Made by a program: the position numbers and the translations under genes. A stretch of DNA of 64,000 nt from a virus, in the IMG/VR virus record IMGVR_UViG_3300045117_000026, positions 15,569 to 79,568 of that record; one strand, written 5' to 3'. Position 1 is the first letter of the stretch. Each line of letters begins with the position of its first letter. Below the pieces are notes generated by a model that did not search any database, was not told the DNA's origin, and saw only the letters and a list, made by a program, of their open reading frames with translations. This document shows, in pieces, positions 3,789 to 43,130 of the stretch.

Positions 3789-4787
3789 TCATCCCAAGTC
3801 TGTAAATGCTGTAATAGATAACTGCTCGTGCTTCAGGCAACTAGGGGAAAACCATATTGTTTCACGCTTGCTGTTTTCACGCCCTTGCCCTTCGCCTTGA
3901 TTTCCGTAGCCACCCCCGGACTTCCATCGGTAAACAGCCCAATCATCGGGCATGGGATGTTCTGTATCATAACCGCATAGGGCAATCCGCATTAGTGGAT
4001 TTTTGCCTGCTTCGATTGCCCACGCTCTGACCTCCGCCGATACTGCATTACCGCCAGTAGTGTACATACTTTCATAGTCATCATACGGTGGGTCAAGGAA
4101 TATCCCCGTTAGTCCTAGCACAAACGTAGGTGACGGCGTTACTATACGTGACCAATCGCCACAGCATACACGCACATCCTTAAACCGTCCCGATAACCTA
4201 TCAAACCACTCATATAATGGTTGAGTGGGGCGGTTGACACCTTCCCCTAGGTTTCTCAGCTGAGGTAGTTGGCGGTTGATACCCCGTGAACCACTCATGT
4301 GGGGTAACTGACGATTGACACCCTGTCCTTTACCAGCCTTAACCATCAATCCATTCTCTGATACCCATGAGCCTTTTCCTCTACAAAAACCCCGACCTAT
4401 CCAGCAGGACATACCCCATGCCCACCAGCCTGCTATCTTTGGGTCATACCAATCAGGGTTGCCCTCCAGTTTAGCAGCCAGTTCATCCTTGCGCTGTACC
4501 AGCCAATAGTGACGGGCGTGTAGGTCATTCTCAATAACAGGATAATCCGCATATTCAGCCGTCTTCTGTGGGTCATGCTTAACTGCTCGCCAAAAGTTGC
4601 TAACGTAGCCATCTTTATCATTCACCGTTTCGATATGCCCTGTATGCCATGCCGGGCGGCGTAGCAAAACAGCACCGGAGCCAAAGAACGGCTCTACATA
4701 GTTCGGCACATCTCCGAACCTGCGCCATACCTCATCGGCTATTTTAGACTTCCCTCCGAAATAGGGGAACGGTGCTTCAAGTACCAT
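3789..4787 (-). CDS. Dam/D12-class DNA adenine methyltransferase
   Basis: PFPYFGGKS, YVEPFFGSGAV, ETVNDKD and FLDPPY; internal G[VI]NRQLP repeats. Confidence 0.92.
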   Translation of the reverse strand: MVLEAPFPYFGGKSKIADEVWRRFGDVPNYVEPFFGSGAVLLRRPAWHTGHIETVNDKDGYVSNFWRAVKHDPQKTAEYADYPVIENDLHARHYWLVQRKDELAAKLEGNPDWYDPKIAGWWAWGMSCWIGRGFCRGKGSWVSENGLMVKAGKGQGVNRQLPHMSGSRGINRQLPQLRNLGEGVNRPTQPLYEWFDRLSGRFKDVRVCCGDWSRIVTPSPTFVLGLTGIFLDPPYDDYESMYTTGGNAVSAEVRAWAIEAGKNPLMRIALCGYDTEHPMPDDWAVYRWKSGGGYGNQGEGQGRENSKRETIWFSPSCLKHEQLSITAFTDLG

Positions 4788-5025: not shown

Positions 5026-5236
5026 TATCTCTCCCCATGCTTACGTCTGTCACAAGGGCTAACGACTTTGCTTTCTCAAATGCCTCTCGTAATTCATCGT
5101 AAGCCTCAACGTCATCAAGAACTCGCTCGGCGTCATTTATCGCTTGTATTAACGGCGTAACATCCACAAGTCTGTTGTCGATTCTTCCAACGGCAATCTT
5201 AGCCATTTTAATAAGTTGTTCTACTTCTTTTAGCAT
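5018..5236 (-). CDS. Small helical hypothetical protein
   Basis: ATG at 5236 with GGAG upstream; overlaps the stop of the C5 MTase. Confidence 0.55.
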   Translation of the reverse strand: MLKEVEQLIKMAKIAVGRIDNRLVDVTPLIQAINDAERVLDDVEAYDELREAFEKAKSLALVTDVSMGRDNG

Positions 5237-6390
5237 CGTTGCCTCTCCACATCCGCTATCGCCTTGAGTATTGGGTAAGCCTGTGGGACGCAAATTGCAT
5301 TACCTAACGCCGTGAGCCGGTTGACCCTTTCCGTTTTGTCTGTCGTGAGGGGGTGCGGCATTTCCCATTCTCCCCCTGCCCAGGTGGGGATATATCCAGC
5401 CAGCCCTTCGGAAATCCCATCATCCATGCTACAAAGTCGGGGTTCAATGTCCCCTTGTTTTTCGGAAACTGGTTTGTCCATTCGGGCAGATTCCCGTGAT
5501 AATCCTTGCTCCCCGGTTTCCTGGTGGACACGCATCCCTTGTAATCCCTTGCCGACGGAGTGGGTATCGTGACTGAACGAGTCAGTGATTGATATTGACC
5601 GCTCTCCCGTGTCGCATTGTTGGCGTCGTCCGCTGTCGGTGTAGCCAATAATCCAGACCCGGTCCCGGCGGTGGATGGCGTTGACGGCGCAAGCTGGAAT
5701 AATAATCGGTTGGACTCTGTAACCGATTCGCTCCATCTCGGTTGTGATTCCGTCCAACCACGAAAACAATTCTGCTTGTGTCTGACCACCTTCTTCGTCC
5801 TCGTCACCCGCCACTTCAGATACGCTATCTGACTTGTCCATTCCCTTGATTCCAGCAGGATTCTCAAACACGCACCAAGTGGGTCTGAGTTCTTCAAGCA
5901 CGCGGATAGTTTCATCCCAGAGCCAGCGGTCATCTGCCGTGCCTCCTCGCTTCCCGGCAACACTGACAGGCTGGCATGGAGGAGAGGCTGTAAGCAGGGT
6001 GAGGGGGATTGACCAACTCTGACTGCTATCCCCAACGGTGTTCCCCCTTGCTGATAAGGGGTTTTCCTGTCCCCCTCGCTGGCTCTCGGTGTCGGCAGTA
6101 ACCCCTTTTGTGCGAATGTTTCCAGCGTCCTGTCCGATTGCCGCTTGCTGCGAGGATTGTATTCCTTGCCAGGTCCTCTCCGTCCGTCCCATGCATTTGG
6201 TGTCGGAATTAATCCGCTCATACGTAACCTCCTTGACATCTGAGATAATCGGCACACCTGGGAAATGGTGTCTGAGTATGGATTGGCAGTAGGGGTTGAT
6301 TTCACATAGGGCAACCGTGCGAAACCCTGCCCATTCAGCAGCCAAGGTAAACCCGCCAATCCCGCTATACAGGTCGATGTGCGATAACAT
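5230..6390 (-). CDS. C5 cytosine DNA methyltransferase (alpha polypeptide)
   Basis: Motif I (DLYSGIGG), IV (PPCQ), VI (ENP), VIII (HRRDRVW) and X (ALGNA); motif IX missing from this frame. Confidence 0.9.
   Translation of the reverse strand: MLSHIDLYSGIGGFTLAAEWAGFRTVALCEINPYCQSILRHHFPGVPIISDVKEVTYERINSDTKCMGRTERTWQGIQSSQQAAIGQDAGNIRTKGVTADTESQRGGQENPLSARGNTVGDSSQSWSIPLTLLTASPPCQPVSVAGKRGGTADDRWLWDETIRVLEELRPTWCVFENPAGIKGMDKSDSVSEVAGDEDEEGGQTQAELFSWLDGITTEMERIGYRVQPIIIPACAVNAIHRRDRVWIIGYTDSGRRQQCDTGERSISITDSFSHDTHSVGKGLQGMRVHQETGEQGLSRESARMDKPVSEKQGDIEPRLCSMDDGISEGLAGYIPTWAGGEWEMPHPLTTDKTERVNRLTALGNAICVPQAYPILKAIADVERQRC
5304..6221 (-). CDS. Alternative-frame beta polypeptide of the C5 MTase (motif IX-like)
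   Basis: Nested ORF with perfect AAGGAGGT SD (6234-6227) before the ATG at 6221; PTP-x-A repeats and LNPDFVAWMMGFPKGW. Confidence 0.75.
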   Translation of the reverse strand: MSGLIPTPNAWDGRRGPGKEYNPRSKRQSDRTLETFAQKGLLPTPRASEGDRKTPYQQGGTPLGIAVRVGQSPSPCLQPLLHASLSVLPGSEEARQMTAGSGMKLSACLKNSDPLGACLRILLESREWTSQIAYLKWRVTRTKKVVRHKQNCFRGWTESQPRWSESVTESNRLLFQLAPSTPSTAGTGSGLLATPTADDANNATRESGQYQSLTRSVTIPTPSARDYKGCVSTRKPGSKDYHGNLPEWTNQFPKNKGTLNPDFVAWMMGFPKGWLDISPPGQGENGKCRTPSRQTKRKGSTGSRR

Positions 6391-7299: not shown

Positions 7300-8520
7300 T
7301 TAATCCAAACTCAACCCAGGTGTCACCGTAACCCTGTGTTTAATCAGTTCGCAATAGTTCTCGGATTGCTCCACCAGTATTGACCGCCTGCCTAATTGAG
7401 TCGCTACCTTTCCTGTAGTACCTGTTCCGGCGAACGGGTCAAGGACAATTTGCGGTTCAATAGGAGCATTACAATCGCACTGTGGTACCCAAGAACTTTT
7501 AGTTACCTGCGACATTCGTTCCAAAATGCGTTGCTTCAGGCGTGAGGGAGTAACGGCGCCAGTACCTTCATAATCTTTCATGTCGCTACCGAAATACTCG
7601 CCGTCACTATTACAGCCGGCTCGTTTCATTTCCTCGGTAATCTGGTGGTCAATAATAGTAATCTCACGCTGCCAAGGTTTGCCACACTTTGAGCATTGTC
7701 CTTTAGCAGATGTAGCCATTGAAATACACAGGCGAGGTATCTCTTCGGGGAAAGCAGCGAAGTGCGAAAGCCAATTATTTGTCCCACACTTCCGGCACCA
7801 CCGCCCATCTTCTTTGAGAACAGTCCCCTTGGTGAATTCATCCCGCCCGTAAATCGTCTTGCACGTCAGGCACATATTGGCTGAGTAAGATACAGTCGGT
7901 ATCTCCCATATTGCTCGGATGTTTCTGCCCGAGTTTGCGCACCTGTCACCAGGCTCGACTTGCCTCATGCCGTGCTCACCCTGCCCCTTAAGCTTCATGT
8001 TGCCATCGCCATATTCATTGCGCATTCTGGTTGACTCTTTATATGGGACACGGACGGCTTCCATGTCAAAGAAGTAATCTTCATTTAGCACAAACATAAG
8101 AATATGCTCGTAGTCAATCGTCGGTCTATCCGGTGCGGATGACGGCATTGAATTCGGCTTCACCCATATTATATCAGCTCGTGGTATCCAGCCCTCATCA
8201 GCTAATGCTATAGCAATGCGATGCGGGATTAACTCGAGGTCCTTTGCTCTGGTGACGCCGAACTTATCGCCGACATTCCAGAAAACAACCCCGTCATTAC
8301 GCAACACTGGTAACAGCGAGCCACAAAAGAAATCAACTGTATGCTGTACATATTCGGCAACCGTTTTCTCTGCTCCAAACCATGCGTTACCATCATAGTC
8401 TCGCTGATTGAAATACGGTGGCGAAGTGACTACGCATTGTACCTGGTAGGGCAGGGTGGCAAGGTCCTTGTTATCTCCATGATAGAGGGAGAGGAGAGGG
8501 GTCTGGTAAAAGACTTTCAT
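7300..8520 (-). CDS. N4-cytosine-type DNA methyltransferase with Zn-ribbon insertions
   Basis: VTSPPY, HFAAFP and LDPFAGTGTT; inserted CxxC pairs. Confidence 0.9.
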   Translation of the reverse strand: MKVFYQTPLLSLYHGDNKDLATLPYQVQCVVTSPPYFNQRDYDGNAWFGAEKTVAEYVQHTVDFFCGSLLPVLRNDGVVFWNVGDKFGVTRAKDLELIPHRIAIALADEGWIPRADIIWVKPNSMPSSAPDRPTIDYEHILMFVLNEDYFFDMEAVRVPYKESTRMRNEYGDGNMKLKGQGEHGMRQVEPGDRCANSGRNIRAIWEIPTVSYSANMCLTCKTIYGRDEFTKGTVLKEDGRWCRKCGTNNWLSHFAAFPEEIPRLCISMATSAKGQCSKCGKPWQREITIIDHQITEEMKRAGCNSDGEYFGSDMKDYEGTGAVTPSRLKQRILERMSQVTKSSWVPQCDCNAPIEPQIVLDPFAGTGTTGKVATQLGRRSILVEQSENYCELIKHRVTVTPGLSLD

Positions 8521-15077: not shown

Positions 15078-15884
15078 TTACACCTCATTAACGTAAACAT
15101 AATCTACCAAGAGGTAGATAGCATCTTGTTTATCAGAGGGGGAGAGCGGAGCATCGGTGCGCAGTAGGTTAATAAGCCTTTTAGCAATAGACTTATCAAG
15201 GGTATCTCGCAAAGAACCAGATGTTGCCGGACCATTGTAATTGTAATGAGCCTCAAGAGGGTACTCGTCTACAAGAGGAGCTTTTGATACATTAGTCTCT
15301 GGTAGCGGGTCAGCCTTGACTGTTACAGGCGCAGTTGTGAATACTTGAGTTAGCGTGCCTTTACCTCCCCATGTATCTGCTTTATCCGGCATTGACAAGA
15401 GGAATGTTTTTGTTTCCTCTGCCCATTTGGTATGATCGGGCCAGTCATGCACATGGACCGTAATCTCTTTCACCATGACTGCACCGCACAATGTCTTTCC
15501 TTTGACTGATGCGCTGATGGCGCCGGAGTTGGTGATTATCAAGCTGACAGGATTATTGGCGTCTACATAACTCTGATCAGCCGGCGAATGGAATGTCCCC
15601 ATGTTGTGGTGCGAATGTATGACGCCGACTTTCCGCTCCGGGGAGACTTCCCCAGGTAACATCTCGCACCAGCCGGAACTGGGTTTGACCTGGCGTGGAA
15701 TAACGATGTCATCGACAAGTACCAGTTCATCAGAGATCGTGCCGAGACACCATCCAATCCACTCAAGGTTGCTCATTGCATCGCATAGGGAACATGCTTT
15801 GGCAAAGGCGTCAAGGGTTATTGAAACATCTGGGAAGATACCGGGTTTTCCGCATTGGGTAATACACTCTTTAGATTGCCACAT
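15078..15884 (-). CDS. JAB/MPN+ (JAMM) metallo-isopeptidase
   Basis: N-terminal Glu (LEWIGW) and H-S-H-x7-S-x2-D (HSHHNMGTFHSPAD). Confidence 0.9.
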   Translation of the reverse strand: MWQSKECITQCGKPGIFPDVSITLDAFAKACSLCDAMSNLEWIGWCLGTISDELVLVDDIVIPRQVKPSSGWCEMLPGEVSPERKVGVIHSHHNMGTFHSPADQSYVDANNPVSLIITNSGAISASVKGKTLCGAVMVKEITVHVHDWPDHTKWAEETKTFLLSMPDKADTWGGKGTLTQVFTTAPVTVKADPLPETNVSKAPLVDEYPLEAHYNYNGPATSGSLRDTLDKSIAKRLINLLRTDAPLSPSDKQDAIYLLVDYVYVNEV

Positions 15885-16915
15885 TATGTCTTAATCTCCT
15901 TTCTTCCTTTTTCCAGACCTGCCATGAATGCCTCGCAATAATCGCAATTATGTTGCTTACAGTTAAGACACTTACCAGGTCCGTCAGCTAGACCCTTATT
16001 GTATGCTCTGCAGTCCTCACAATCTCTGTGTACGCATTCATTACAATTACCAAAGTCAACTTCATCCGCGTCAACCTTACCGCAGTTCTCGCACGCATTT
16101 GCGACGGCTCTACAACCATCACACTTGTCGCAGTCATCGCAGTCCCCACGGTAGCAGTCATCGCACATTTCTCTGTGCGCCTTGCATTCGTCACGTTTAC
16201 AGCGGTCACAATCATCGAAGCTGTCTTTCTTGGTACATGTCTTGCACAGTTCTGGGCTGGCAACCTCTTGAGTAACAATCCTGGGTTGTCCTACATCACC
16301 GATATCCATTGATAGTTGAAGCAATGGAAACTTCATGAGCTTGGCTACACCCATTGCGGCGGCCGCTATAGCTGGGACGACCCAGCTTGGGATAAAGTTG
16401 TAGGCCGCTATCTTACCGTTCTCGTCTACTACGGCAGGAACTTTCTCCTGAACCCATCCGGGTAACTTGTCTGCTACCATGAAGTGAGTACCATCATACC
16501 CAAGCTTTGTGTATGTCACTCCATAGTCAACTGACCATTTGTAGTTAATCCCCTGGGAAATCAGAGTGTCGGTACAATCTATCAGATTGTCGGGTAAGAC
16601 ATAGTCATTGTGGAAATCCTCGAGCGGGAACTTTACGATATACGCATTACACGTAATATCCGGTCGCAGGGCTATGATAAGCTCCCTTGTCGCTTCAGCT
16701 TTATACTGGTCAAGCTGATGGATTGTGAACGGCAGTCGGTTCAGGTTAGAAGCTTCAATCCGGTCAGGGTCGTACAGTTCAATGTGCGGTACCCCTGACA
16801 TCGCAAGGAGCAAAGCTACCCAAGCACCGACACCACCGCACCCAACTACTGCCACCTTTTGTGGCATCAAGAGGTGCAACTCCTGTTGCCTGTTATAAAT
16901 TATGTCGGCTTCCAT
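15884..16915 (-). CDS. E1-like ThiF/MoeB adenylyltransferase with Cys-rich C-terminal tail
   Basis: YNRQ, VVGCGGVG, DPDRIEASNLNRL, KAEA and IDCTD; more than 10 CxxC-type units at the C-terminus. Confidence 0.92.
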   Translation of the reverse strand: MEADIIYNRQQELHLLMPQKVAVVGCGGVGAWVALLLAMSGVPHIELYDPDRIEASNLNRLPFTIHQLDQYKAEATRELIIALRPDITCNAYIVKFPLEDFHNDYVLPDNLIDCTDTLISQGINYKWSVDYGVTYTKLGYDGTHFMVADKLPGWVQEKVPAVVDENGKIAAYNFIPSWVVPAIAAAAMGVAKLMKFPLLQLSMDIGDVGQPRIVTQEVASPELCKTCTKKDSFDDCDRCKRDECKAHREMCDDCYRGDCDDCDKCDGCRAVANACENCGKVDADEVDFGNCNECVHRDCEDCRAYNKGLADGPGKCLNCKQHNCDYCEAFMAGLEKGRKEIKT

Positions 16916-17775
16916 AATCCTGATCCTTTCGCTTCGTCATTAAAGTCTTCCTTCAATGCATTAATCACATCATTGTACGTCGGGATATTATCCTCTGGAT
17001 TTTCATGCATACCGGAAAACTCGTTAATGTAACCCTGTTGTGCTATTGCTTGTGTTATTAGTTGTGTCGGCTCGGGGTTTAAGGGAACGTTGCGATAAGC
17101 AAGAGATCGCACACAGTTATTGTACCCGGAGCCGTAATAGTTGCGGAACGGGGCGCCGTCCTGCCGGAAGAGACCAATGTTACTGCATACAGGTGATCTG
17201 GTGCCTGTGAAACGGAGTTGCAGGAATACGTTACGGCTTGAGGCTTCTTGTATTTCCTTTGGTATATCGTAGAACTTCCCGTGACGTTCAAGCTTTGTCG
17301 GGCACCAAGTGAACGGGACTGCATATACAAGACAGTCTAGATGATAGAACAACCTCTTACCGCTAACGGCGTATTGTATGGTGAACCACTTTGGGAACTT
17401 GAACTCGTTTGACGTATTTACTTTTCTGAGGAATTCGTTAATGGCAATGACAGCAACCCTTTTGTTAGAACTTGCTTGGTCTGCCATTACACCAACCAAA
17501 CTCTTTATGATAGGCTCTTTGGTTTTCTTGTTGGTGACGGAAACGTCGCAGGAGCCAATGTCTGCGTCGTTTAATTTCAGGGTAATGGAGTTGTCTTCCG
17601 TCCTTAGAGCGTCAATGATCTGCTTATACTCAGGTGGCTCTTCAGGCACATGTCCGTTTGATGCCAGCCATACCGACAGCGGGCAACGTTCACTAAAAGA
17701 ACAAGCGGTGTGCGGTATCAATGACTGCGGAACACGTGCACCGTTGACAGACATTACTTCTTGATTTGTCGGCAT
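16900..17775 (-). CDS. Putative E2-like (prokaryotic UBC-fold) conjugating enzyme
   Basis: Sits between Ubl and E1; GAPFRNYYGSGYNNC resembles the APF-x-N-x-Y-x-x-G-x-x-C active-site motif of Prok-E2 families. Confidence 0.6.
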   Translation of the reverse strand: MPTNQEVMSVNGARVPQSLIPHTACSFSERCPLSVWLASNGHVPEEPPEYKQIIDALRTEDNSITLKLNDADIGSCDVSVTNKKTKEPIIKSLVGVMADQASSNKRVAVIAINEFLRKVNTSNEFKFPKWFTIQYAVSGKRLFYHLDCLVYAVPFTWCPTKLERHGKFYDIPKEIQEASSRNVFLQLRFTGTRSPVCSNIGLFRQDGAPFRNYYGSGYNNCVRSLAYRNVPLNPEPTQLITQAIAQQGYINEFSGMHENPEDNIPTYNDVINALKEDFNDEAKGSGLWKPT

Positions 17776-17798
17776 AGTTACCCTCCTTAAGGATTATG

Positions 17799-17827
17799 AA
17801 GTCGGGGGTCATTACGACCCCCGACTT
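17799..17827. terminator. 12-bp stem-loop downstream of the Ubl gene
   Basis: AAGTCGGGGGTC-ATTAC-GACCCCCGACTT; weak U tract on the coding strand. Confidence 0.6.
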
Positions 17828-17866
17828 GTTTGTTGTCCGGACAGTCAAACTATATAAGCTACGGGA

Positions 17867-18103
17867 TTAGCACCCGCCAGCGTTATAAGCCTCAATCCGA
17901 ACGGTCATACCAACCTCGAAGGAAGCTGGTACGTTGTTGCCGGTCTCGTCAATCTCTACATCGTTGACGTAGACGCGGGCACTGTTGATACCGTGCTTGA
18001 TAAGGAGATCATTGATGCCGCTACCGAATTTGGTCCCTGCAGCGACTTCGACCGCCTTACCATCGACCGTGACACTGAGCGCCTTTGCTTTCTGTTCCCA
18101 CAT
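17867..18103 (-). CDS. Ubiquitin-like beta-grasp protein ending GG-C
   Basis: 78 aa with ThiS/MoaD-like pattern (VTVDGK...VYVNDVEI...GMTVRIEAYNAGGC); GAAAGGAG SD. Confidence 0.85.
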   Translation of the reverse strand: MWEQKAKALSVTVDGKAVEVAAGTKFGSGINDLLIKHGINSARVYVNDVEIDETGNNVPASFEVGMTVRIEAYNAGGC

Positions 18104-18160: not shown

Positions 18161-18697
18161 CTACCCGCCCCTCGGGCCGTTATAGAAATCGTTTCCATCA
18201 ACCTTGACTTCTCCACCCTCTATCACAAGCGTTGCTTGGAAACCCATCCCGCCCTCGTAAGAGAGCATTTCAAATCGCAATGACGGGAATAACTCACCAG
18301 CTTTTATGATAAGCGGAGTAGGCGGGGACCATGCGGTCTCAAAGGTATACTCCACTTTACCTTTTGGCTTGGTGGTTGACTTAGAGATCATTTTCACCTC
18401 GCAGAACCCCCACTTGGTACCCCAGTTGTCAATACACCACTCATAGCCACCGCTGTTAAAGCCGTTCTTTGGACGGTTCTCCAACAGAGATGAGAAGTTA
18501 GGGTCCTTAGCTTTATTCTCCCGTACTTCCCTGTCCCACTTCGTGGCTTCCTCATCCAGTGTCCTGAACTCCTCTGGATAAGGGATAAGCTTGTTGGCAT
18601 CCATTAAAGAGTTTTTCCCTTTAACTAACTCCACAAACTTCTTTAACTCTCCAGAGGGCCCCGTGATTGTAAGATCGTTCTCGCACCAGTTAGGCAT
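18161..18697 (-). CDS. DUF1281/YubB-like ferredoxin-fold protein
   Basis: MPNWCEN, WCIDNWGTKW, FETAWSPP and YEGGMGF. Confidence 0.8.
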   Translation of the reverse strand: MPNWCENDLTITGPSGELKKFVELVKGKNSLMDANKLIPYPEEFRTLDEEATKWDREVRENKAKDPNFSSLLENRPKNGFNSGGYEWCIDNWGTKWGFCEVKMISKSTTKPKGKVEYTFETAWSPPTPLIIKAGELFPSLRFEMLSYEGGMGFQATLVIEGGEVKVDGNDFYNGPRGG

Positions 18698-19452: not shown

Positions 19453-20436
19453 TTACACCTCGTATATCGGACATCTGCGGTAATTGGTTAACAGCCTATT
19501 CCGGAAAGCAATAGTGTGTCGATTGTTCCATACCTCGTTCATAAAGTTACCAGAATGAACAACATCCACGCCATCGCACACATTCTCGGTGAATGAGCAA
19601 GGGAAGCCAATGCCTTTAGCGTTAATGTAGTAGGAGAACAAGGTTGACTCACACGGCTCAACGCTACTAGCATCCACAGATACGCCGGAGTTGATTACGT
19701 TATGAGCACTACAGCTATCAAAGCCGACAGTTACCTGCCTGTCCAATGATGCTTGGAGTAATCGCTGATATGACCTTGTATCCTTTACTTTACTGAACCT
19801 TGATGTCTGTCCGCGACCCTTTGGCTTAAAGGCAAGAAAGACAATAGCGTTGACCTCGAGACCCATAGCTTTAGTGTTACTCACCTCGGTAATAAGGCGA
19901 ACGCAATCATCAAGTGTTTCCTCAGAGAGAAGTGCATGGATATTATTCTGCGTGATACCACGTTTCCTTAATTCATGGAGAGCGGTAAAGCATACGTCTT
20001 TGTCATAGTACGACACCGCCACCGCTCCACACAGCTTGGAGAGAATGTCATAGTACCTCGGCGTCATACGGAAGCCGTTGATAGTAATGTTGGGTATAAC
20101 GCCTTTGCTTCGAGTATACTCAAGGATGGCGGGGAGGTCGGGGTTGCCATCAATGTCTCCTATGCCGAACGCTATTTGCGTGAGGTTACTTGGAGCTTTA
20201 TCAATGATACCCTTGAATGTATCAAGGCTCATGTTGTAACCATCAGCAGTATTACCCTTATAGCAGAACCTGCATCCTTGATGACAGACGGTGCTCAGTT
20301 CAATATCAAGGAGTTCCGGACCAAGTGGCGACACCTGCGGGTCGTCCTGTATGGTGTTACCCCAACGCATAAAGAAGCCGTTGTTTTGATTGAATATGTA
20401 GTTGTAACCAGGGTGCTTAACTACTTTGAGCGACAC
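19453..20436 (-). CDS. Radical SAM protein with C-terminal Cys cluster (SPASM/twitch-like)
   Basis: CHQGCRFC (CX3CX2C), QIAFG, GFDSC, PCES..FS.YIN..G..FPCSF and terminal CP. Confidence 0.92.
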   Translation of the reverse strand: MSLKVVKHPGYNYIFNQNNGFFMRWGNTIQDDPQVSPLGPELLDIELSTVCHQGCRFCYKGNTADGYNMSLDTFKGIIDKAPSNLTQIAFGIGDIDGNPDLPAILEYTRSKGVIPNITINGFRMTPRYYDILSKLCGAVAVSYYDKDVCFTALHELRKRGITQNNIHALLSEETLDDCVRLITEVSNTKAMGLEVNAIVFLAFKPKGRGQTSRFSKVKDTRSYQRLLQASLDRQVTVGFDSCSAHNVINSGVSVDASSVEPCESTLFSYYINAKGIGFPCSFTENVCDGVDVVHSGNFMNEVWNNRHTIAFRNRLLTNYRRCPIYEV

Positions 20437-24648: not shown

Positions 24649-25065
24649 TCAACATTCTATTTTCCTCCTTGTTTTCCTTTCCCGCAGGACAAAATTACTG
24701 CCACGGCGCTCGACGATGTCCCCGAGGTCAAAAGCCTCTGATACCGTTTTGATGTCGTCTATGCAATCCGAGATTGTTTGAGCAGCATCATCCGGGGTCA
24801 TGATACTTAACCAGCCACCAGCCTCCAAACTCTTCCTAATTATTCCCTTAAACGTGTTTACGCTCATGGGAATATTAACCACCCTCATTGTGGTTGTAGC
24901 TTTGTGGCTAGTGGCTCCTGACCATGACCGGCGACATCCGCAAAAACCATCTACCTCTTCATGGTCACAGTCAAGGTGTGGCAGGACAATCTCACCCTCG
25001 ACCGCATGGCAGAAGTCATTTGTCCTCTGACCCTGTGTCTGCTTGGTTGCTACTAATAGTTTCAT
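24649..25065 (-). CDS. Conserved Cys-containing hypothetical protein
   Basis: LVAT..TQGQR.NDF...EGE.V...CGCRRSW.G..S.KATTT, a pattern recalled from bacterial and phage hypotheticals. Confidence 0.65.
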   Translation of the reverse strand: MKLLVATKQTQGQRTNDFCHAVEGEIVLPHLDCDHEEVDGFCGCRRSWSGATSHKATTTMRVVNIPMSVNTFKGIIRKSLEAGGWLSIMTPDDAAQTISDCIDDIKTVSEAFDLGDIVERRGSNFVLRERKTRRKIEC

Positions 25066-25670: not shown

Positions 25671-26246
25671 TTACGGACAAGAAGCTCTTGGTGACTCGTG
25701 TACATCTTTATAAGTGTCAACATATATATCAGGTATAGTTCCTGCGATCATACCTGCCGCTACAAGAACCGGGGAGTACGACCAAGCCGGTACAAAGTAT
25801 TGTGTCTCTTCTCCAGAGTTGTTAGTGATAGCGAAGTAACATCCTTTGTAACTAATCTCCGCATAATTTGCTCCTAGTCCCGAGGCCCAGTCGGAGCATG
25901 CGACCCGTTCGGAAGGACTTTTAATACCGCACGTTACAATCCACTGTGGTTGCTCGCAAGAATAAACAGGTGCGCTTGTGGTCCTAATATTCAATTTACA
26001 ATCGGGTCTAATGGACAGTATCATTCTCCTTACTGCTTCTACCTTATAGGCGCCAACCTGATGGGGCAAAAGAGCTAACATAAGTTCCTCGTTGGTTTTG
26101 CTCTCGACCCTGGCAGGATCAATCAGCGTAATGGTTTTGATACCAGATGTCGCCAACAACAGGGACTCCAATATACCAATGGAGCCAAGTCCGACTACAA
26201 TGACATGGTCATCCAATGGATTATGCTGTTTAATACCTTCATCCAT
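25671..26246 (-). CDS. Second, truncated/degenerate ThiF/E1-like protein
   Basis: VVGLGSIG, LIDPARVE, VGAYKVEAVRRMILSIRPD and PAWS; lacks the SNLNRQ ATP-binding motif. Confidence 0.75.
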   Translation of the reverse strand: MDEGIKQHNPLDDHVIVVGLGSIGILESLLLATSGIKTITLIDPARVESKTNEELMLALLPHQVGAYKVEAVRRMILSIRPDCKLNIRTTSAPVYSCEQPQWIVTCGIKSPSERVACSDWASGLGANYAEISYKGCYFAITNNSGEETQYFVPAWSYSPVLVAAGMIAGTIPDIYVDTYKDVHESPRASCP

Positions 26247-36479: not shown

Positions 36480-36685
36480 AACTAAAGGAAGACTTCGGGG
36501 TAACGGCATTATTCGGTTGCCTGATAATTGTCGGCGCCTTTGCTGTTATCCTTGCCGCCCTGTTAAAGGACAAGATAGAGTTCGAGTCTGTTTTTGTTGC
36601 TGTTTCATCCTGGGTAGGGTCGATAATCACAGCGTACGTACTCAAGGCTAAGACCAACGGCTTTGGGGGGAAAGAACAAAAATGA
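36476..36685 (+). CDS. Two-TM membrane protein (holin-like)
   Basis: Two hydrophobic helices and a charged C-terminus. Confidence 0.55.
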   Translation: MKLKEDFGVTALFGCLIIVGAFAVILAALLKDKIEFESVFVAVSSWVGSIITAYVLKAKTNGFGGKEQK

Positions 36686-38355
36686 CTGAAGAAAACGGGT
36701 CCCTCGCTAGCAGACCAGATGAAGTTGTTGGAGCTGATGGCTCGTTGAATGCGGCTGGGCTTCACAAGGACGGTCGAGAGGGACCCGCCGAACTCAATGA
36801 ACAGCATATCCTGACAGGAATGCCACCGATACCGCAAATATTACAGTGCGTTGTCACCTTTCAGGCAGTTAACCTTGTCGGCTCCTCTGTATATGACGGT
36901 AGCAAACCCCACGATGCCGATGTTCTGGTTCGCTCGTCAAGCTCGCTCCCAGAACTCGAGCGTAATCTGGAAACACAACTTGGGCCAAAGGTACATTTCC
37001 TCTACGAGACTAAAGGGCCGTCTTGGGACCACATGCCTCTCGGCGACTTTGTTCTTTATCCGGTTAACGGCAAACCAGCTATAAGCGAAAGTTCTGCAGC
37101 AGATACGCTAGCTGGAAAGTTACGGCCAATACTCGTCGACCCTCGGTATCTCAACCTCGTCAAATCTTCCGGAACTATCAAATTCCGAGTGAACTCCGAT
37201 TCGCCTGACCCCGGTTTCTTTCTGAAGTTACAGAGGATGATGGGTGACTTGGGGCAGGATGCGGTGGGTTTCTCTCAGAAGACTGAGGTGGGGGAGGTAC
37301 CGGTGGGGATGCTTTATTTTATTCCATATCCGGCCTTTCAGAAAGTCGTGGTTAACGAACCGGACTTTAAGCGATTCTATATTAAGAAAACAAATGTTGA
37401 GGAGAATGCAATGCTTGTAAAAGATTTTTTGGAGTTGATTGAGGGTGTCGGTCTAGTTGAGGGAACGCGGCCGCCGTGGGGTTCTCCAGGTGGCAAACGC
37501 TTCATGGCAAGGCGTCTTATAAAGATGTTTCCGGAAGAGTTCAAAACCTATGTCGAGCCGTTCTTTGGCGGTGGCGCCGTTTTCTATGCGATGGATAATC
37601 AAAAGCAGGGACGCAAAGAGATTATCAACGACCTTAATAAAGACATCGTCCGTGCCGTCAAGTTTATCCAGCATATATCCGACGCACAAATTGACGCCCT
37701 GTCGAAGAAGGATTGGAAGCCGACTGCCGATCACTATGCTTATCTTAAGAACTTGAAGCCGGTGCGGGAAGTTGATTGGATGTACCGCTTCCTCTACATG
37801 AAGCGTCATTCCTACGGTGGCAATATCGGTCAGCAAGGATTGAAACAAGCCACCCACACCCCCGCCTACTTTGAGAACCTGAAGAGGGTGAGAGAGCGTC
37901 TCAAGGGTGTCGATGTCCGTAGCGAAGACGCTGCGAAACTCATCCCCAAAGTTGACGGCAAGGACGTGTTCTTTTTCCTTGACCCGCCGTATCCTGAGAA
38001 GACAAAGAACTGGTTTAATCTCGGCTGGATAGAGATGGACGACCTCGTCAAGCTGGCAAAGGGGATGAAAGGCAAGTTCCTGATGACATTACAGGCCGGT
38101 ACCAAGGTCCGGAGTGCTTTCAAAGACTTCAACGTCAAGTCAATGAAGACATATGCCTACATTATCACCAATCGTCCAGGACAGGCCCCTGCAGTCCGCA
38201 ACGAAACCATCATCACGAACTACGATAAGAAGAACGTCAAGGAAGCTTTTCCTGAGAAGTTCTTTACTATTACTGCGAGTGATGGCATTACTGTCATCGA
38301 GCAGAAACTACTGACGCCTGAAGAAATGGAAGCCCTCGAGTTTTCTGAGGATTAG
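36682..38355 (+). CDS. Fusion of an unknown N-terminal domain and a Dam/D12-class adenine methyltransferase
   Basis: C-terminal half has SPGGKR, YVEPFFGGGAV, IINDLN and FLDPPY. Confidence 0.85.
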   Translation: MTEENGSLASRPDEVVGADGSLNAAGLHKDGREGPAELNEQHILTGMPPIPQILQCVVTFQAVNLVGSSVYDGSKPHDADVLVRSSSSLPELERNLETQLGPKVHFLYETKGPSWDHMPLGDFVLYPVNGKPAISESSAADTLAGKLRPILVDPRYLNLVKSSGTIKFRVNSDSPDPGFFLKLQRMMGDLGQDAVGFSQKTEVGEVPVGMLYFIPYPAFQKVVVNEPDFKRFYIKKTNVEENAMLVKDFLELIEGVGLVEGTRPPWGSPGGKRFMARRLIKMFPEEFKTYVEPFFGGGAVFYAMDNQKQGRKEIINDLNKDIVRAVKFIQHISDAQIDALSKKDWKPTADHYAYLKNLKPVREVDWMYRFLYMKRHSYGGNIGQQGLKQATHTPAYFENLKRVRERLKGVDVRSEDAAKLIPKVDGKDVFFFLDPPYPEKTKNWFNLGWIEMDDLVKLAKGMKGKFLMTLQAGTKVRSAFKDFNVKSMKTYAYIITNRPGQAPAVRNETIITNYDKKNVKEAFPEKFFTITASDGITVIEQKLLTPEEMEALEFSED

Positions 38356-40404: not shown

Positions 40405-40445
40405 AGGTCTGAGTGGCAAAACAAAGAATGGAGGACGCAAGGTCG

Positions 40446-43130
40446 ATGTCCAAAACTTTACTAGAGGCCAAAGTGGATGCGGAGGTGTTTGGGGCTATCA
40501 AAGCCGCACTGGGGAAACTCAGTGCCGTGTCTGACAAGTTGCCCGAAAAGGCAAAGAAAGCTGTCGAGACACTAGCCTCTATCCTTGGTGGCAAAGTTGA
40601 AGCCAAGGAATCCGAAAAAGCTGAAGAGAAGGCGGATGAGGAAGAAGTGAAGTGTACCGGCAAGGAAGATTGTCCTTGTCCTGAATGCAAGAAAAAGCGC
40701 GGGGAAGAAGTAGAGGAAGCTTGCAAGGGCAAAAAGCCGGGTGAGGCTGATGAGGAATCCGGGGAATGCACTGGGGAAGAAGATTGTGAATGTCCGGAGT
40801 GCAAGAAAAACAAAGCCAAGGCTAAAGAGGCCCTGCGGCCGAGTGAAATCGTAAAATCACTCGACCTGCTTTATGAGGCCGAGAAAGAATCCGGGGACAA
40901 ACTGCCCAAGGATGTCATTACCGCTATCAAGGCGCTGATGACAAAACTAGCTGATGTTCTCAAGGACCTCGGTTACTCATACAGTGATGGTGGGAGCGGT
41001 AAGGGGTTCTATCATAATGATAAGGACTCCAAGCACAAGGGTAAGAAACCGCCTGCCTACTATTACTCATCTTCCTATGGAGATGCCACTCAAACTGTGC
41101 GTGAGCCTGTACCACATGACAGGAAGCGCATCCAGGCTTCCGCCAGACTGATTGAGTCTGTTAGCGGAACAGAGGGCAAGAAGTGGCACGCCGTCCTGAT
41201 TCAGTCAGGTCTATCGAAGAACCGTTTCATGTACCGGGATGATGTACTCGAAAAGGCTACGCCTCTCTTTGAGGGGTGTAAATCCTATGTTGACCATCCG
41301 AATACAACCGACAGGAAACAGTTACCTGAGAGAAGCGTGGCTGATATTGCTGGATGGTTCGAGGGTGCTACGAAGCAACCCGATGGCATTCATGCTACGT
41401 TCCATGTAGCAGGGGGCAAGGAATGGCTCCGTGAAATGTTCATTGATGCTTACGAGCACAATAAGCCCGACCTGCTCGGTTTCTCAATCTACGCCGAGGG
41501 TAAGACCCGTGTTGACAGACAAGACGGGAAACTAATCTGGATGGTTGAGAGTATTGACAAGGTAGATTCCGTTGACGTTGTGACTCAACCTGCAGCCGGC
41601 GGTCGAATTGCCGGACTAATTGAATCCGAAGATGGAGAAAGAGAAATGAAAGAACTCGAAAACATGACAGTTGAAGAACTGTCGAAGATTCGTCCGGACC
41701 TGGTCGAATCTATCAAGAAAACTGCTCAGCCCCAGCCGCCACCCAAGAATGATGAGGGGGATAAGGTGATTGCGAGGATGGCTGAAGCGGAAAAGGCAAT
41801 TAATGTTAAGCTTTGCGGCGTTGCCTTAAAGGAAAAGCTTGCTGGTAGTAAGCTTCCTGTCGCCTTTAAGGAAGCCATCGAGAAGGACTTCGCCGGTCGT
41901 GTTTACCCCGAAGCCGAACTTGATGCCCGAATCACCCGCGATACCGATATCTGGGCAAAAGCTTCTCCCCCGCCCCAGCCCGTTACTTCGAGAGTACGGG
42001 AAATGCACGAGAACAAGGACAACATCAGCAAGGCTCTTGATGCCATGATACAGAACAAGACGGATGTAGATGGCGTCAAACCGTTCCGGTCTCTTACCGA
42101 GGCCTACGCAACCTTTAAGGGAGTGCCGATTGTCGATGTTAATCCCCTGAACATACTCCGTGAATCGGCTGCCGGATACGATTCTGGCGCCAGGACCCTG
42201 AGGGAATCCGTTACCACTTCCTCTTGGGGTGAAATTCTTGGCGACTCCGTTACCCGTGCCCTGCTTGCCGAATACAACATCCCCGGCCTTGATGATTGGC
42301 GCAAGGTGGTCTCCACCATTACCAGCCTCAAGGACTTCCGGACTCAGCGCCGGCAGAGACTCGGCGGATACGGCACTCTGCCGTCCGTCGGACAGGGTGC
42401 TACTTATCAGTCTCTTACCTCACCAACTGATGAGGAAGTCACCTACTCTCCGAGCAAATATGGTGGGTTGGAAGACCTGACCATAGAAACCATCGCCAAT
42501 GACGACCTCGGTGCCGTTCAGTCCATTCCGAGGCGTCTCGCACGTGCCGCCAAGATTACGCTGTATCGCTTCGTGTTTGACTTCCTTGCGAACAACAGCT
42601 CCATCTATGACGCACTTGCCCTCGCCCACTCGACCCACGGCAACATCAGCACCACCGCCCTGAGTTATGCTCAGGTAATCTCTGCCGTCCAGAAGATGCG
42701 TGACTTCACCGCCTACGGCGCGACAACCGAGTTCTTGCAGATTCGGCCCAAGTTGCTCGTAGTCCCGAATGAACTCGAAGCCACTGCGTTCTACATCAAC
42801 ACGATGGATACCTATCCGGATACCGTTACCCCGGCTGCCGGTGGTACCGCTGCCGTTGACCTTCGCCGCAACATGGTTAAGGGATGGTTCGAAGTTATCG
42901 TGGTTGACTACTGGACCGATGCCGATAACTGGTGGCTGGTTGCTGATCCCAAACTCGCCCCGACATTCGAACTCGGCTTCCTTAACGGGAAGCAGGAGCC
43001 TGAACTGCTCTCGCAGAACGACCCGACCCAAGGCTCACTGTTCTCTGCCGATAAGGTCTCCTACAAGATACGCCATATCTACGGCGGAGCCGTTCTTGAT
43101 TGGCGGTCATACTTCGGCGGGATAGTGTAG
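40446..43130 (+). CDS. Prohead protease-scaffold-major capsid polyprotein (Mu gpT-like capsid domain)
   Basis: Protease motifs SKNRFMY, YVDHP, GFSI and SVDVVTQPAAGG; capsid motifs RPKLLVVPNELE, FLNGKQEP and YKIRHIYGGAVLDWR; GGAGG SD before the ATG at 40446. Confidence 0.92.
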   Translation: MSKTLLEAKVDAEVFGAIKAALGKLSAVSDKLPEKAKKAVETLASILGGKVEAKESEKAEEKADEEEVKCTGKEDCPCPECKKKRGEEVEEACKGKKPGEADEESGECTGEEDCECPECKKNKAKAKEALRPSEIVKSLDLLYEAEKESGDKLPKDVITAIKALMTKLADVLKDLGYSYSDGGSGKGFYHNDKDSKHKGKKPPAYYYSSSYGDATQTVREPVPHDRKRIQASARLIESVSGTEGKKWHAVLIQSGLSKNRFMYRDDVLEKATPLFEGCKSYVDHPNTTDRKQLPERSVADIAGWFEGATKQPDGIHATFHVAGGKEWLREMFIDAYEHNKPDLLGFSIYAEGKTRVDRQDGKLIWMVESIDKVDSVDVVTQPAAGGRIAGLIESEDGEREMKELENMTVEELSKIRPDLVESIKKTAQPQPPPKNDEGDKVIARMAEAEKAINVKLCGVALKEKLAGSKLPVAFKEAIEKDFAGRVYPEAELDARITRDTDIWAKASPPPQPVTSRVREMHENKDNISKALDAMIQNKTDVDGVKPFRSLTEAYATFKGVPIVDVNPLNILRESAAGYDSGARTLRESVTTSSWGEILGDSVTRALLAEYNIPGLDDWRKVVSTITSLKDFRTQRRQRLGGYGTLPSVGQGATYQSLTSPTDEEVTYSPSKYGGLEDLTIETIANDDLGAVQSIPRRLARAAKITLYRFVFDFLANNSSIYDALALAHSTHGNISTTALSYAQVISAVQKMRDFTAYGATTEFLQIRPKLLVVPNELEATAFYINTMDTYPDTVTPAAGGTAAVDLRRNMVKGWFEVIVVDYWTDADNWWLVADPKLAPTFELGFLNGKQEPELLSQNDPTQGSLFSADKVSYKIRHIYGGAVLDWRSYFGGIV

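Follow-up and report, generated by a model that had tools for sequence, protein, structure and literature searches.

What use might a tailed phage have for the parts of a ubiquitin-like conjugation pathway? The question is raised by a stretch of viral DNA of 64,000 nucleotides (nt; hereafter the window), which comprises bases 15569-79568 of the 79.6-kb IMG/VR virus record IMGVR_UViG_3300045117_000026, a record estimated to be 67% complete. The plus-strand arm of the window contains genes for the large terminase, portal and tape-measure proteins and for an apparent protease-capsid fusion, which identify the source as a tailed phage. In the minus-strand arm, four consecutive genes encode a putative ubiquitin-like protein (Ubl), a protein of 291 amino acids (aa) that we denote ORF291 after its open reading frame, an E1-like protein of the ThiF family and a JAB/JAMM peptidase. 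We regard it as fairly probable that together they form a ubiquitin-like conjugation cassette that belongs to the phage itself, as a divergent representative of a module of tailed phages, and in which ORF291 would occupy the place of the E2 enzyme.

An earlier annotation of this DNA, made from the letters and the list of open reading frames only (hereafter the sequence-only reading), had described the locus as a complete operon of four minus-strand genes, with overlaps among the last three. All four genes lie where it had placed them and contain every motif that it quoted (Table 1), and the overlaps are 16 nt between the E2-like and E1 genes and 1 nt (TAATG) between the E1 and JAB genes. Between the Ubl and E2-like genes is a gap of 91 nt with a stable, GC-rich, 12-bp hairpin, which may serve as an mRNA 3' stabiliser or as an attenuator, so that more Ubl than enzymes would be made. 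The cassette is compact, with four genes in approximately 3 kb, and its gene content is solid. Three public sources together yield eight or nine contigs that encode the same proteins, with 1-2 substitutions and an identical GGC end of the Ubl. Searches of GenBank phages with the cassette, ORF291 and E1 (blastn and tblastn) yielded no match, as did single-sequence scans of IMG/VR with ORF291 and E1, and a profile search of a large protein collection with one of our alignments (A2) returned only two proteins.

Using an alignment of E1 relatives, and E1 alone, we retrieved 78 viral loci and 24 loci from genome assemblies, the latter being mostly metagenome-assembled genomes (MAGs). The Ubl, the middle protein, E1 and JAB are all present in 57 of the 78 viral loci and in 19 of the 24 MAG loci, and most of the remaining loci without the full cassette are cut contigs. 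Throughout the family, the E2-like gene is located between the Ubl and E1 genes. This four-gene arrangement is far beyond chance, and the conserved synteny in phages that had been proposed as a check of the sequence-only reading is evident in the same gene order of the 57 viral loci. The module is widespread in tailed phages, and the window copy is unusually divergent. The MAG loci belong mostly to Omnitrophota, Planctomycetota and Woesearchaeota, and to these is added the complete genome of Ca. Velamenicoccus archaeovorus. The cassette has a compact form in loci L081-L104 (L102 is NZ_CP019384.1 635454-647945): the Ubl has 77 aa, the E2-like protein ~195 aa and E1, which contains CxxC motifs, ~310 aa, and JAB is also present. 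Immediately ahead of the cassette, 38 of the 57 complete viral loci carry the genes for both clamp-loader subunits (large and small) and for a sliding-clamp-like protein (e.g., the related phage contig L047, 2117-4704 and 8894-10540), a placement that hints at replication proteins as targets. No homolog of the L047 sliding-clamp protein was found in the record from which the window comes, as far as its 67% completeness goes. In 5 loci, a TROVE/Ro60 gene is located downstream of JAB.

The identity of ORF291 is the crux of the problem. By itself, ORF291 had no match in Pfam, PADLOC or PHROG; a word search of 5.8 billion proteins and a phmmer search of 1.84 billion representatives recovered only ORF291 itself; an Atlas search gave no usable match; and the single-sequence AlphaFold model (predicted local distance difference test, pLDDT, 33) was unusable. 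Because no relatives were detectable with the single sequence, the family was sought through synteny with E1. The proteins encoded between the Ubl and E1 genes fall into two size classes, of ~290 aa in phages and ~195 aa in MAGs, and hhalign supports the relatedness of the two (E = 6e-5). A hidden Markov model (HMM) was built from 70 of these middle proteins, with ORF291 left out, and 2000 shuffles served as the control. ORF291 matched this HMM over residues 89-277 with 28.4 bits (E = 5e-11), compared to 5.3 bits for the top shuffle, and is therefore a real, albeit divergent, member of the family. The conserved domain spans residues ~98-291 (16903-17484) and includes the C-terminal Trp-containing peptide GLWKPT.

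Cys221 of ORF291 (codon 17113-17115) is conserved in 71 of 71 family members. The hallmarks of the family are a conserved His motif ahead of this Cys, followed by C-x-G and IN..S, the commonest reading around the Cys being F-x-HYH-x3-6-DCWG; of the shared positions, ORF291 retains P, G, IN..S and the C-terminal W. Three divergent members (L065, L055 and L058) read HPNV/HCNV-x3-G-x-VCLG, and HPNV..G.VCLG is the textbook active-site signature of ubiquitin-conjugating (UBC) E2 enzymes. At the corresponding region, ORF291 reads FRNYYGSGYNNC, with Asn212 where the family has His. Sub-threshold Pfam matches to UQ_con or Prok-E2_D, at the active-site region of these profiles, were obtained for 4 independent relatives (best E = 0.0013), and UQ_con was the only Pfam family matched by more than one of 60 middle-protein members. 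When 5 MAG genomes and 301 genomes from a single phylum were searched for bona fide Prok-E2_D sequences that could be used for a profile-profile comparison, none turned up.

With residues 98-291 of ORF291 and 59 homologous domains as input, AlphaFold produced a model with pLDDT 82.1 and a predicted TM score (pTM) of 0.71. The order of elements in this model is a long helix, a beta-meander, a loop with N212 and C221, a helix 15 residues past the Cys, and two further helices, an order and spacing that we take to be those of a UBC domain. When the model was compared to the Protein Data Bank (PDB) with Foldseek, E2 enzymes (UbcH7, Ubc13, UBCi) accounted for 9 of the 23 first ranks, with full-length alignments and non-significant E-values of 0.4-1.5, and in a structure search of BFVD a mimivirus E2 appeared at rank 30. 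The sole near-significant structural neighbour of the model is a 241-aa viral protein in BFVD, A0A7R7G2H5 (Foldseek probability 0.97, E = 0.0036), which is probably another member of the E2-like family. The proposal of the sequence-only reading that the 291-aa protein is E2-like is thus probably right in view of the syntenic family, the invariant Cys, the HPN..C-type motif and the UBC-like order of elements; the UBC fold itself did not reach a significant Foldseek score. Judging from the family alignment and the model, ORF291 is probably a non-canonical E2-like carrier.

For the 78-aa protein, the prediction of a beta-grasp fold is upheld. Its Atlas model (pLDDT 0.71) matches 77-aa clusters automatically named ThiS with a TM score of 0.78, and clusters of ThiS (PF02597) and SAMP2 (PF21965) with TM scores of 0.60-0.62. 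The alignment of 37 relatives shows a ThiS-like pattern, with a nearly invariant terminal A-G that is aligned to G76-G77 of the window protein, and the top match of the family profile in the PDB is SUMO (E = 0.024). From the model and the alignment, the protein can be classified as a beta-grasp protein of the ThiS/MoaD/SAMP type, with a C-terminal Gly predicted to be available for adenylation. Family members end in [YF]-x-x-A-G, and most stop at that Gly; a single extra Cys follows the terminal Gly in 9 other Ubls, whereas others carry 1-7 different residues. In the window Ubl, Gly77 is the predicted mature C-terminus and Cys78 (codon 17870-17872) is a one-residue cap. Given that a short cap is a recurrent variant in the family, trimming by JAB is plausible; given that Cys is the commonest residue to follow the Gly, it may also be more than a disposable cap. 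Ends of the Gly-Cys kind occur across several lineages, as AG-C, PG-C and, in the window, GG-C (other loci: L021, L090, L092, L093, L096, L097, L098 and L104).

A further observation links the Ubl with the E2-like protein. In phage-type cassettes (loci L003-L080), the N-terminal extension of the Ubl and the extreme C-terminus of the E2-like protein share the peptide [DE]-[VIY]-W-[STGD], as exemplified by DEVWST and DEVWGS in L048, and in MAG-type cassettes both termini carry NL-x-E-[LE] (MNLNEL... and ...NLIEEII). The counterparts in the window are MWEQ at the N-terminus of the Ubl (18091-18103) and GSGLWKPT at the C-terminus of ORF291 (16903-16926). The presence of like peptides at these two termini suggests docking on one common site.

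The E1 protein is readily assigned to the ThiF family (Pfam PF00899, 84.5 bits vs. a cut-off of 28.1), and in a PDB search residues 10-126 align with E. coli ThiF, UBA5, MccB and Cap2. When E1 is aligned with 20 relatives, the glycines that bind the nucleotide (G25/G27/G30), D49, R60 (of SNLNR), K72 and D116 (of DCTD) prove conserved, and E1 should accordingly be capable of adenylation. The adenylating core occupies residues ~1-215 and is followed by a tail of ~120 aa (~15887-16243) with ~10 CxxC motifs; of 21 long-tailed relatives, 16 have at least 2 such motifs in the tail. The segment from GYDG to PSW, which corresponds to the crossover loop, contains no Cys in the window E1 or in 55 of 58 relatives, whereas a Tyr directly precedes PSW in 58 of 58 relatives and in the window E1 (Tyr172). 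A canonical thioester-forming E1 was therefore rejected as the identity of this protein: the catalytic loop Cys is absent and a Tyr is kept there instead, so that the canonical E1~Ubl thioester step is unlikely and the relay must differ from the classical one. Hence, of the earlier description of a ThiF/E1, the intact GxGxxG, SNLNR and DCTD motifs hold, and the loop Cys that a classical E1 thioester would need is missing.

The window contains a second ThiF-like gene; when its product is aligned with the E1 family, GxGxxG is retained, but the arginine of SNLNR and the aspartates of DCTD are missing. Judging by these substitutions, this 191-aa paralog is apparently inactive and could be a pseudo-E1 partner subunit of E1, its membership in the cassette being uncertain. 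In five related viral records, no second ThiF gene was found, with one ThiF gene in each.

The fourth protein scored 22.3 bits against Prok-JAB of Pfam, just below the cut-off of 25. The family profile, when compared to solved structures, reached JAMM deubiquitinases, first the AMSH-like Sst2 (E = 1.6e-5), followed by AMSH-LP, STAMBP, AfJAMM and BilC, and the zinc-site residues E41, H90, H92, S100 and D103 are invariant across 32 aligned family members, in agreement with the JAMM peptidase with an intact E...HSH-x7-S-x2-D motif that had been recognised from the sequence. The MPN+ domain comprises residues ~1-140, and the C-terminal half is unassigned. C11 and C133 are also invariant in all 32 aligned proteins (alignment A5) and might make up an additional metal site or be linked by a disulfide. 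The roles predicted for JAB from its sequence are removal of the cap from the pre-Ubl, removal of the Ubl from targets, or both. Because most Ubls of the family already end at Gly, trimming is not the only conserved task of JAB, and reversal of conjugates is the likelier general role.

These components suggest the following mechanism. The Ubl would be made with a one-residue Cys cap, which the JAMM peptidase would remove to expose Gly77. By homology, the minimal ThiF-type E1, in which the ATP/Mg residues are intact and a catalytic Cys is absent, would then adenylate Gly77. Next, the invariant Cys221 of the E2-like protein would take over the activated Ubl, which could come straight from the adenylate or by way of the conserved loop Tyr172, the latter route being the one proposed for the E1s of the Bub systems. 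Finally, the E2-like protein would transfer the Ubl to one or more target proteins, a transfer that the JAMM peptidase could reverse. We infer more broadly, and with somewhat less than even confidence, that tailed phages run a stripped-down, ubiquitination-like pathway in which a Cys-less mini-E1 hands a ThiS-like Ubl to a new, phage-specific E2-like family, such that replisome or host proteins would be tagged during infection in a JAMM-reversible manner. The pathway would be the virus-side counterpart of Bil, Bub and CBASS (the anti-phage signalling system based on cyclic oligonucleotides), with the addition, in this phage, of the zinc-rich E1 tail and the pseudo-E1 paralog.

Several observations weigh against a conjugation cassette. 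The nearest named relatives of the Ubl are the sulfur carriers ThiS and MoaD, and the named best matches of E1 are ThiF and MoeB. The profile of the E2-like family matched no PDB sequence at E-values up to 10, and in the Foldseek comparison of the ORF291 model with the PDB no match was significant (best E = 0.38). Furthermore, in ORF291 the family His is replaced by Asn212 and the Gly after the Cys by Arg223, so that this protein could be a weakened member of its family.

The neighbours of the cassette are small genes without assigned function and DNA methyltransferase genes (Table 1). Five of the latter are present in the window, namely, in the order of Table 1, an N6/N4, a D12-class N6-adenine, a C5-cytosine and a second N6/N4 methyltransferase, and one in the structural arm. 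A Pfam scan of the genes in the cassette arm bears out the earlier statement that no thiamine or molybdenum cofactor (Moco) genes are nearby, and likewise detected no rhodanese, cysteine desulfurase, PP-loop ATPase, ThiG/ThiH or MoaE in this arm. The radical SAM and Api92-like proteins had no match in the related cassette loci. The radical SAM gene and two FVSNSS proteins were considered as cassette parts and rejected, given that their matches in related loci are weak and at chance level.

Table 1. Positions of the cassette genes and of other features in the window
Feature	Position	Strand	Description
JAB gene	15078-15884	minus	268 aa; E41, H90-S-H92-x7-S100-x2-D103
E1 gene	15884-16915	minus	343 aa; GCGGVG 25-30, SNLNR 56-60, DCTD 113-116
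ORF291, E2-like gene	16900-17775	minus	291 aa; includes GAPFRNYYGSGYNNC, Cys is residue 221
Stem-loop between Ubl and E2-like genes	17799-17827	minus	12 bp, 8/12 pairs G-C
Ubl gene	17867-18103	minus	78 aa; C-terminus ...EAYNAGGC
Api92-like (DUF1281_C) gene	18161-18697		cassette arm
Radical SAM gene	19453-20436		cassette arm, 1.3 kb upstream of cassette
DUF7715 gene	24649-25065		cassette arm
Second ThiF-like gene	25671-26246	minus	191 aa; Pfam ThiF 42 bits
DNA methyltransferase gene	2069-2878
DNA methyltransferase gene	3789-4787
DNA methyltransferase gene	5230-6390
DNA methyltransferase gene	7300-8520
DNA methyltransferase gene	36682-38355
Apparent protease-capsid fusion gene	40413-43130	plus	905 aa; head-maturation protease and major-head PHROG matches

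The alternative that survives best is a sulfur-carrier pathway, in which E1 would adenylate the Ubl for conversion to a C-terminal thiocarboxylate, with the Cys221 protein serving as a relay for persulfide. The sulfur would end up in a small molecule or in a modification of nucleic acid, and the part of JAB would be confined to maturing or recycling the carrier. JAMM peptidases that act with carriers have precedents in Mec+ with CysO and QbsD with QbsE. The named similarities of both the Ubl, for which ThiS and SAMP2 are the closest named clusters, and E1, for which the best curated matches are ThiF and MoeB and which, like them, has no E1-type catalytic domain, fit such a pathway; moreover, the Cys after Gly-Gly recalls the CysO-cysteine adduct, a radical SAM gene is located upstream, and DNA methyltransferases are numerous in the arm. 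However, all curated NCBIfam models of E1 proteins scored far below their equivalog cut-offs with the window E1 (the top match, ThiF PRK08644, reached 65.6 bits vs. a cut-off of 159), with sub-threshold similarity to UbaA; the arm lacks the sulfurtransferase and pathway genes listed above; the neighbouring window genes that were searched, including the radical SAM gene, are without matches in the related loci; the divergent partner proteins read HPN..G.VCLG, an E2 signature, rather than a rhodanese loop; and the JAB profile is nearest to isopeptidases of the AMSH type. We therefore consider a sulfur-carrier pathway improbable.

A second alternative retains protein tagging but dispenses with the E2: conjugation of the Ubl would be the work of E1 by itself, and ORF291 would be a substrate, an adaptor or a regulator. 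Archaea (SAMP/UbaA) and Thermus (TtuB/TtuC) provide known examples of Ubl systems that have a JAMM peptidase but no E2. Compatible with this possibility are the non-significant Foldseek match to the UBC fold, the absence from ORF291 of the family His and Gly that flank the Cys, and the sub-threshold similarity of E1 to UbaA. In contrast, the Cys is present in 71 of 71 family members at a fixed spacing, preceded by a beta-meander and followed by a helix just as the E2 cysteine is; the sub-threshold Pfam matches in four independent relatives fall on the E2 active-site region; and the gene is always located between those of the Ubl and E1 and is translationally coupled to that of E1. Tagging without an E2 thus appears slightly less probable still than sulfur transfer.

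The least probable of the alternatives is that the genes are a carried, Bil-like defence or superinfection-exclusion module that would tag proteins of competing phages instead of serving the replication or takeover of its own phage: every experimentally studied prokaryotic Ubl-E1-E2-JAB system is an anti-phage defence (PMC11601596, PMC11601603), the window cassette lies in an accessory-gene arm with methyltransferases, and near-identical cassettes occur in Omnitrophota and Planctomycetota MAG contigs, whereas the PADLOC Cap2 models match only the nucleotide-binding part of E1, the replication-module position in 38 of the 57 complete viral loci is unusual for moron-type defence genes, and the defining features of Bil and Bub are lacking here.

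A phage-owned conjugation cassette, the reading that we favour, can be placed among the known systems as follows. Like Bil (BilABCD types I and II; ISG15-like), it has four separate genes for Ubl, E2 or E2-like protein, JAB and E1, no E3, a Gly end of the Ubl and a Cys in the E2. The Bil E1 (BilD), however, has the architecture IAD-AAD-CYS (PMC11601596), whereas the E1 encoded here has just one adenylation domain, ~200 aa in length, and lacks a Cys domain, on which ground membership in Bil was rejected. The cassette further differs from Bil in that its E2-like family has no significant match to known E2s and in that it is phage-encoded and often located in the replication module. The likeness to Bil is accordingly best described as analogy rather than membership.

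With Bub (formerly 6E/DUF6527), the cassette has in common a homodimer-type, ThiF/UBA5-like E1 that lacks a loop Cys and has an invariant Tyr, together with a non-canonical E2. In Bub E1s, too, the crossover loop has no Cys and a Tyr is its only invariant residue, and BubCD cleaves right after the conserved Gly of BubAB (PMC11601596). Unlike the cassette family with its invariant Cys, the Bub E2 has an invariant Ser (oxyester chemistry), and Bub systems consist of fused proteins (Ubl-E2, JAB-E1 or E2-E1) and include the DUF6527 serine protease BubE. Membership in Bub was rejected because the invariant residue is Cys, not Ser, and because no DUF6527 match was found among the neighbouring window genes in the Pfam scan. 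Type II CBASS (Cap2/Cap3) resembles the cassette in combining E1 adenylation, E2 or E2-like and JAB components, and Cap2 models are the best PADLOC matches of E1, but Cap2 is an E2-E1 fusion with a catalytic E1 Cys and conjugates the C-terminus of a CD-NTase, not a beta-grasp Ubl. The identity with type II CBASS was rejected since the locus has no E2-E1 fusion and no CD-NTase or effector.

The PRTRC (ParB-related, ThiF-related) cassette, to which NCBIfam TIGR03734-03742 belong and which is operon type 6d in Iyer et al. 2006, is similar in that Ubl, E2-like and ThiF genes are carried by mobile elements. Membership was rejected, with E1 scoring 24.4 bits against PRTRC_ThiF (TIGR03736) vs. a cut-off of 144.75, and the other PRTRC models did not match the Ubl, E2-like and JAB proteins of the window and two relatives. 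The SAMP/UbaA/HvJAMM1, ThiS-ThiF, MoaD-MoeB and CysO-Mec+ systems share a Gly-ending beta-grasp protein of the ThiS/MoaD type, a single-domain ThiF-type E1 and sometimes a JAMM peptidase; they have no E2-like partner and mostly transfer sulfur, whereas the cassette always has a Cys-bearing E2-like gene and no linked sulfur-pathway genes. Membership in ThiS-ThiF or MoaD-MoeB was rejected because E1 is not a match at the equivalog level (65.6 vs. 159 bits) and because the arm contains no ThiG/ThiH/MoaE or sulfurtransferase genes.

In the literature searched, we found no phage Ubl-E2-E1-JAB cassette; Ubl-JAB pairs were encountered only in the tail assembly of lambda/T1, and E1-like genes alone in Asgard viruses. 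The only other phage Ubl-JAB association that we found there, between the TAPI Ubl and the TAPK JAB-NlpC/P60 protein of lambda/T1, has no E1 or E2, belongs to the tail module and presumably entails nothing beyond processing (PMC1779556). For the prokaryotic Ubl-E1-E2-JAB systems, namely type II CBASS, Bil and Bub, the only role characterised is defence of the host against phages, and here phages encode the same logic. Should the cassette work as predicted, protein tagging would operate on both sides of the phage-host conflict, and a new E2-like family would be added to the known ones, together with a second kind of Cys-less E1, the E2 of which bears Cys rather than Ser. The pairing of a Cys-less E1 with a Cys-bearing E2 thereby bears on the evolution of the E1-E2 relay.

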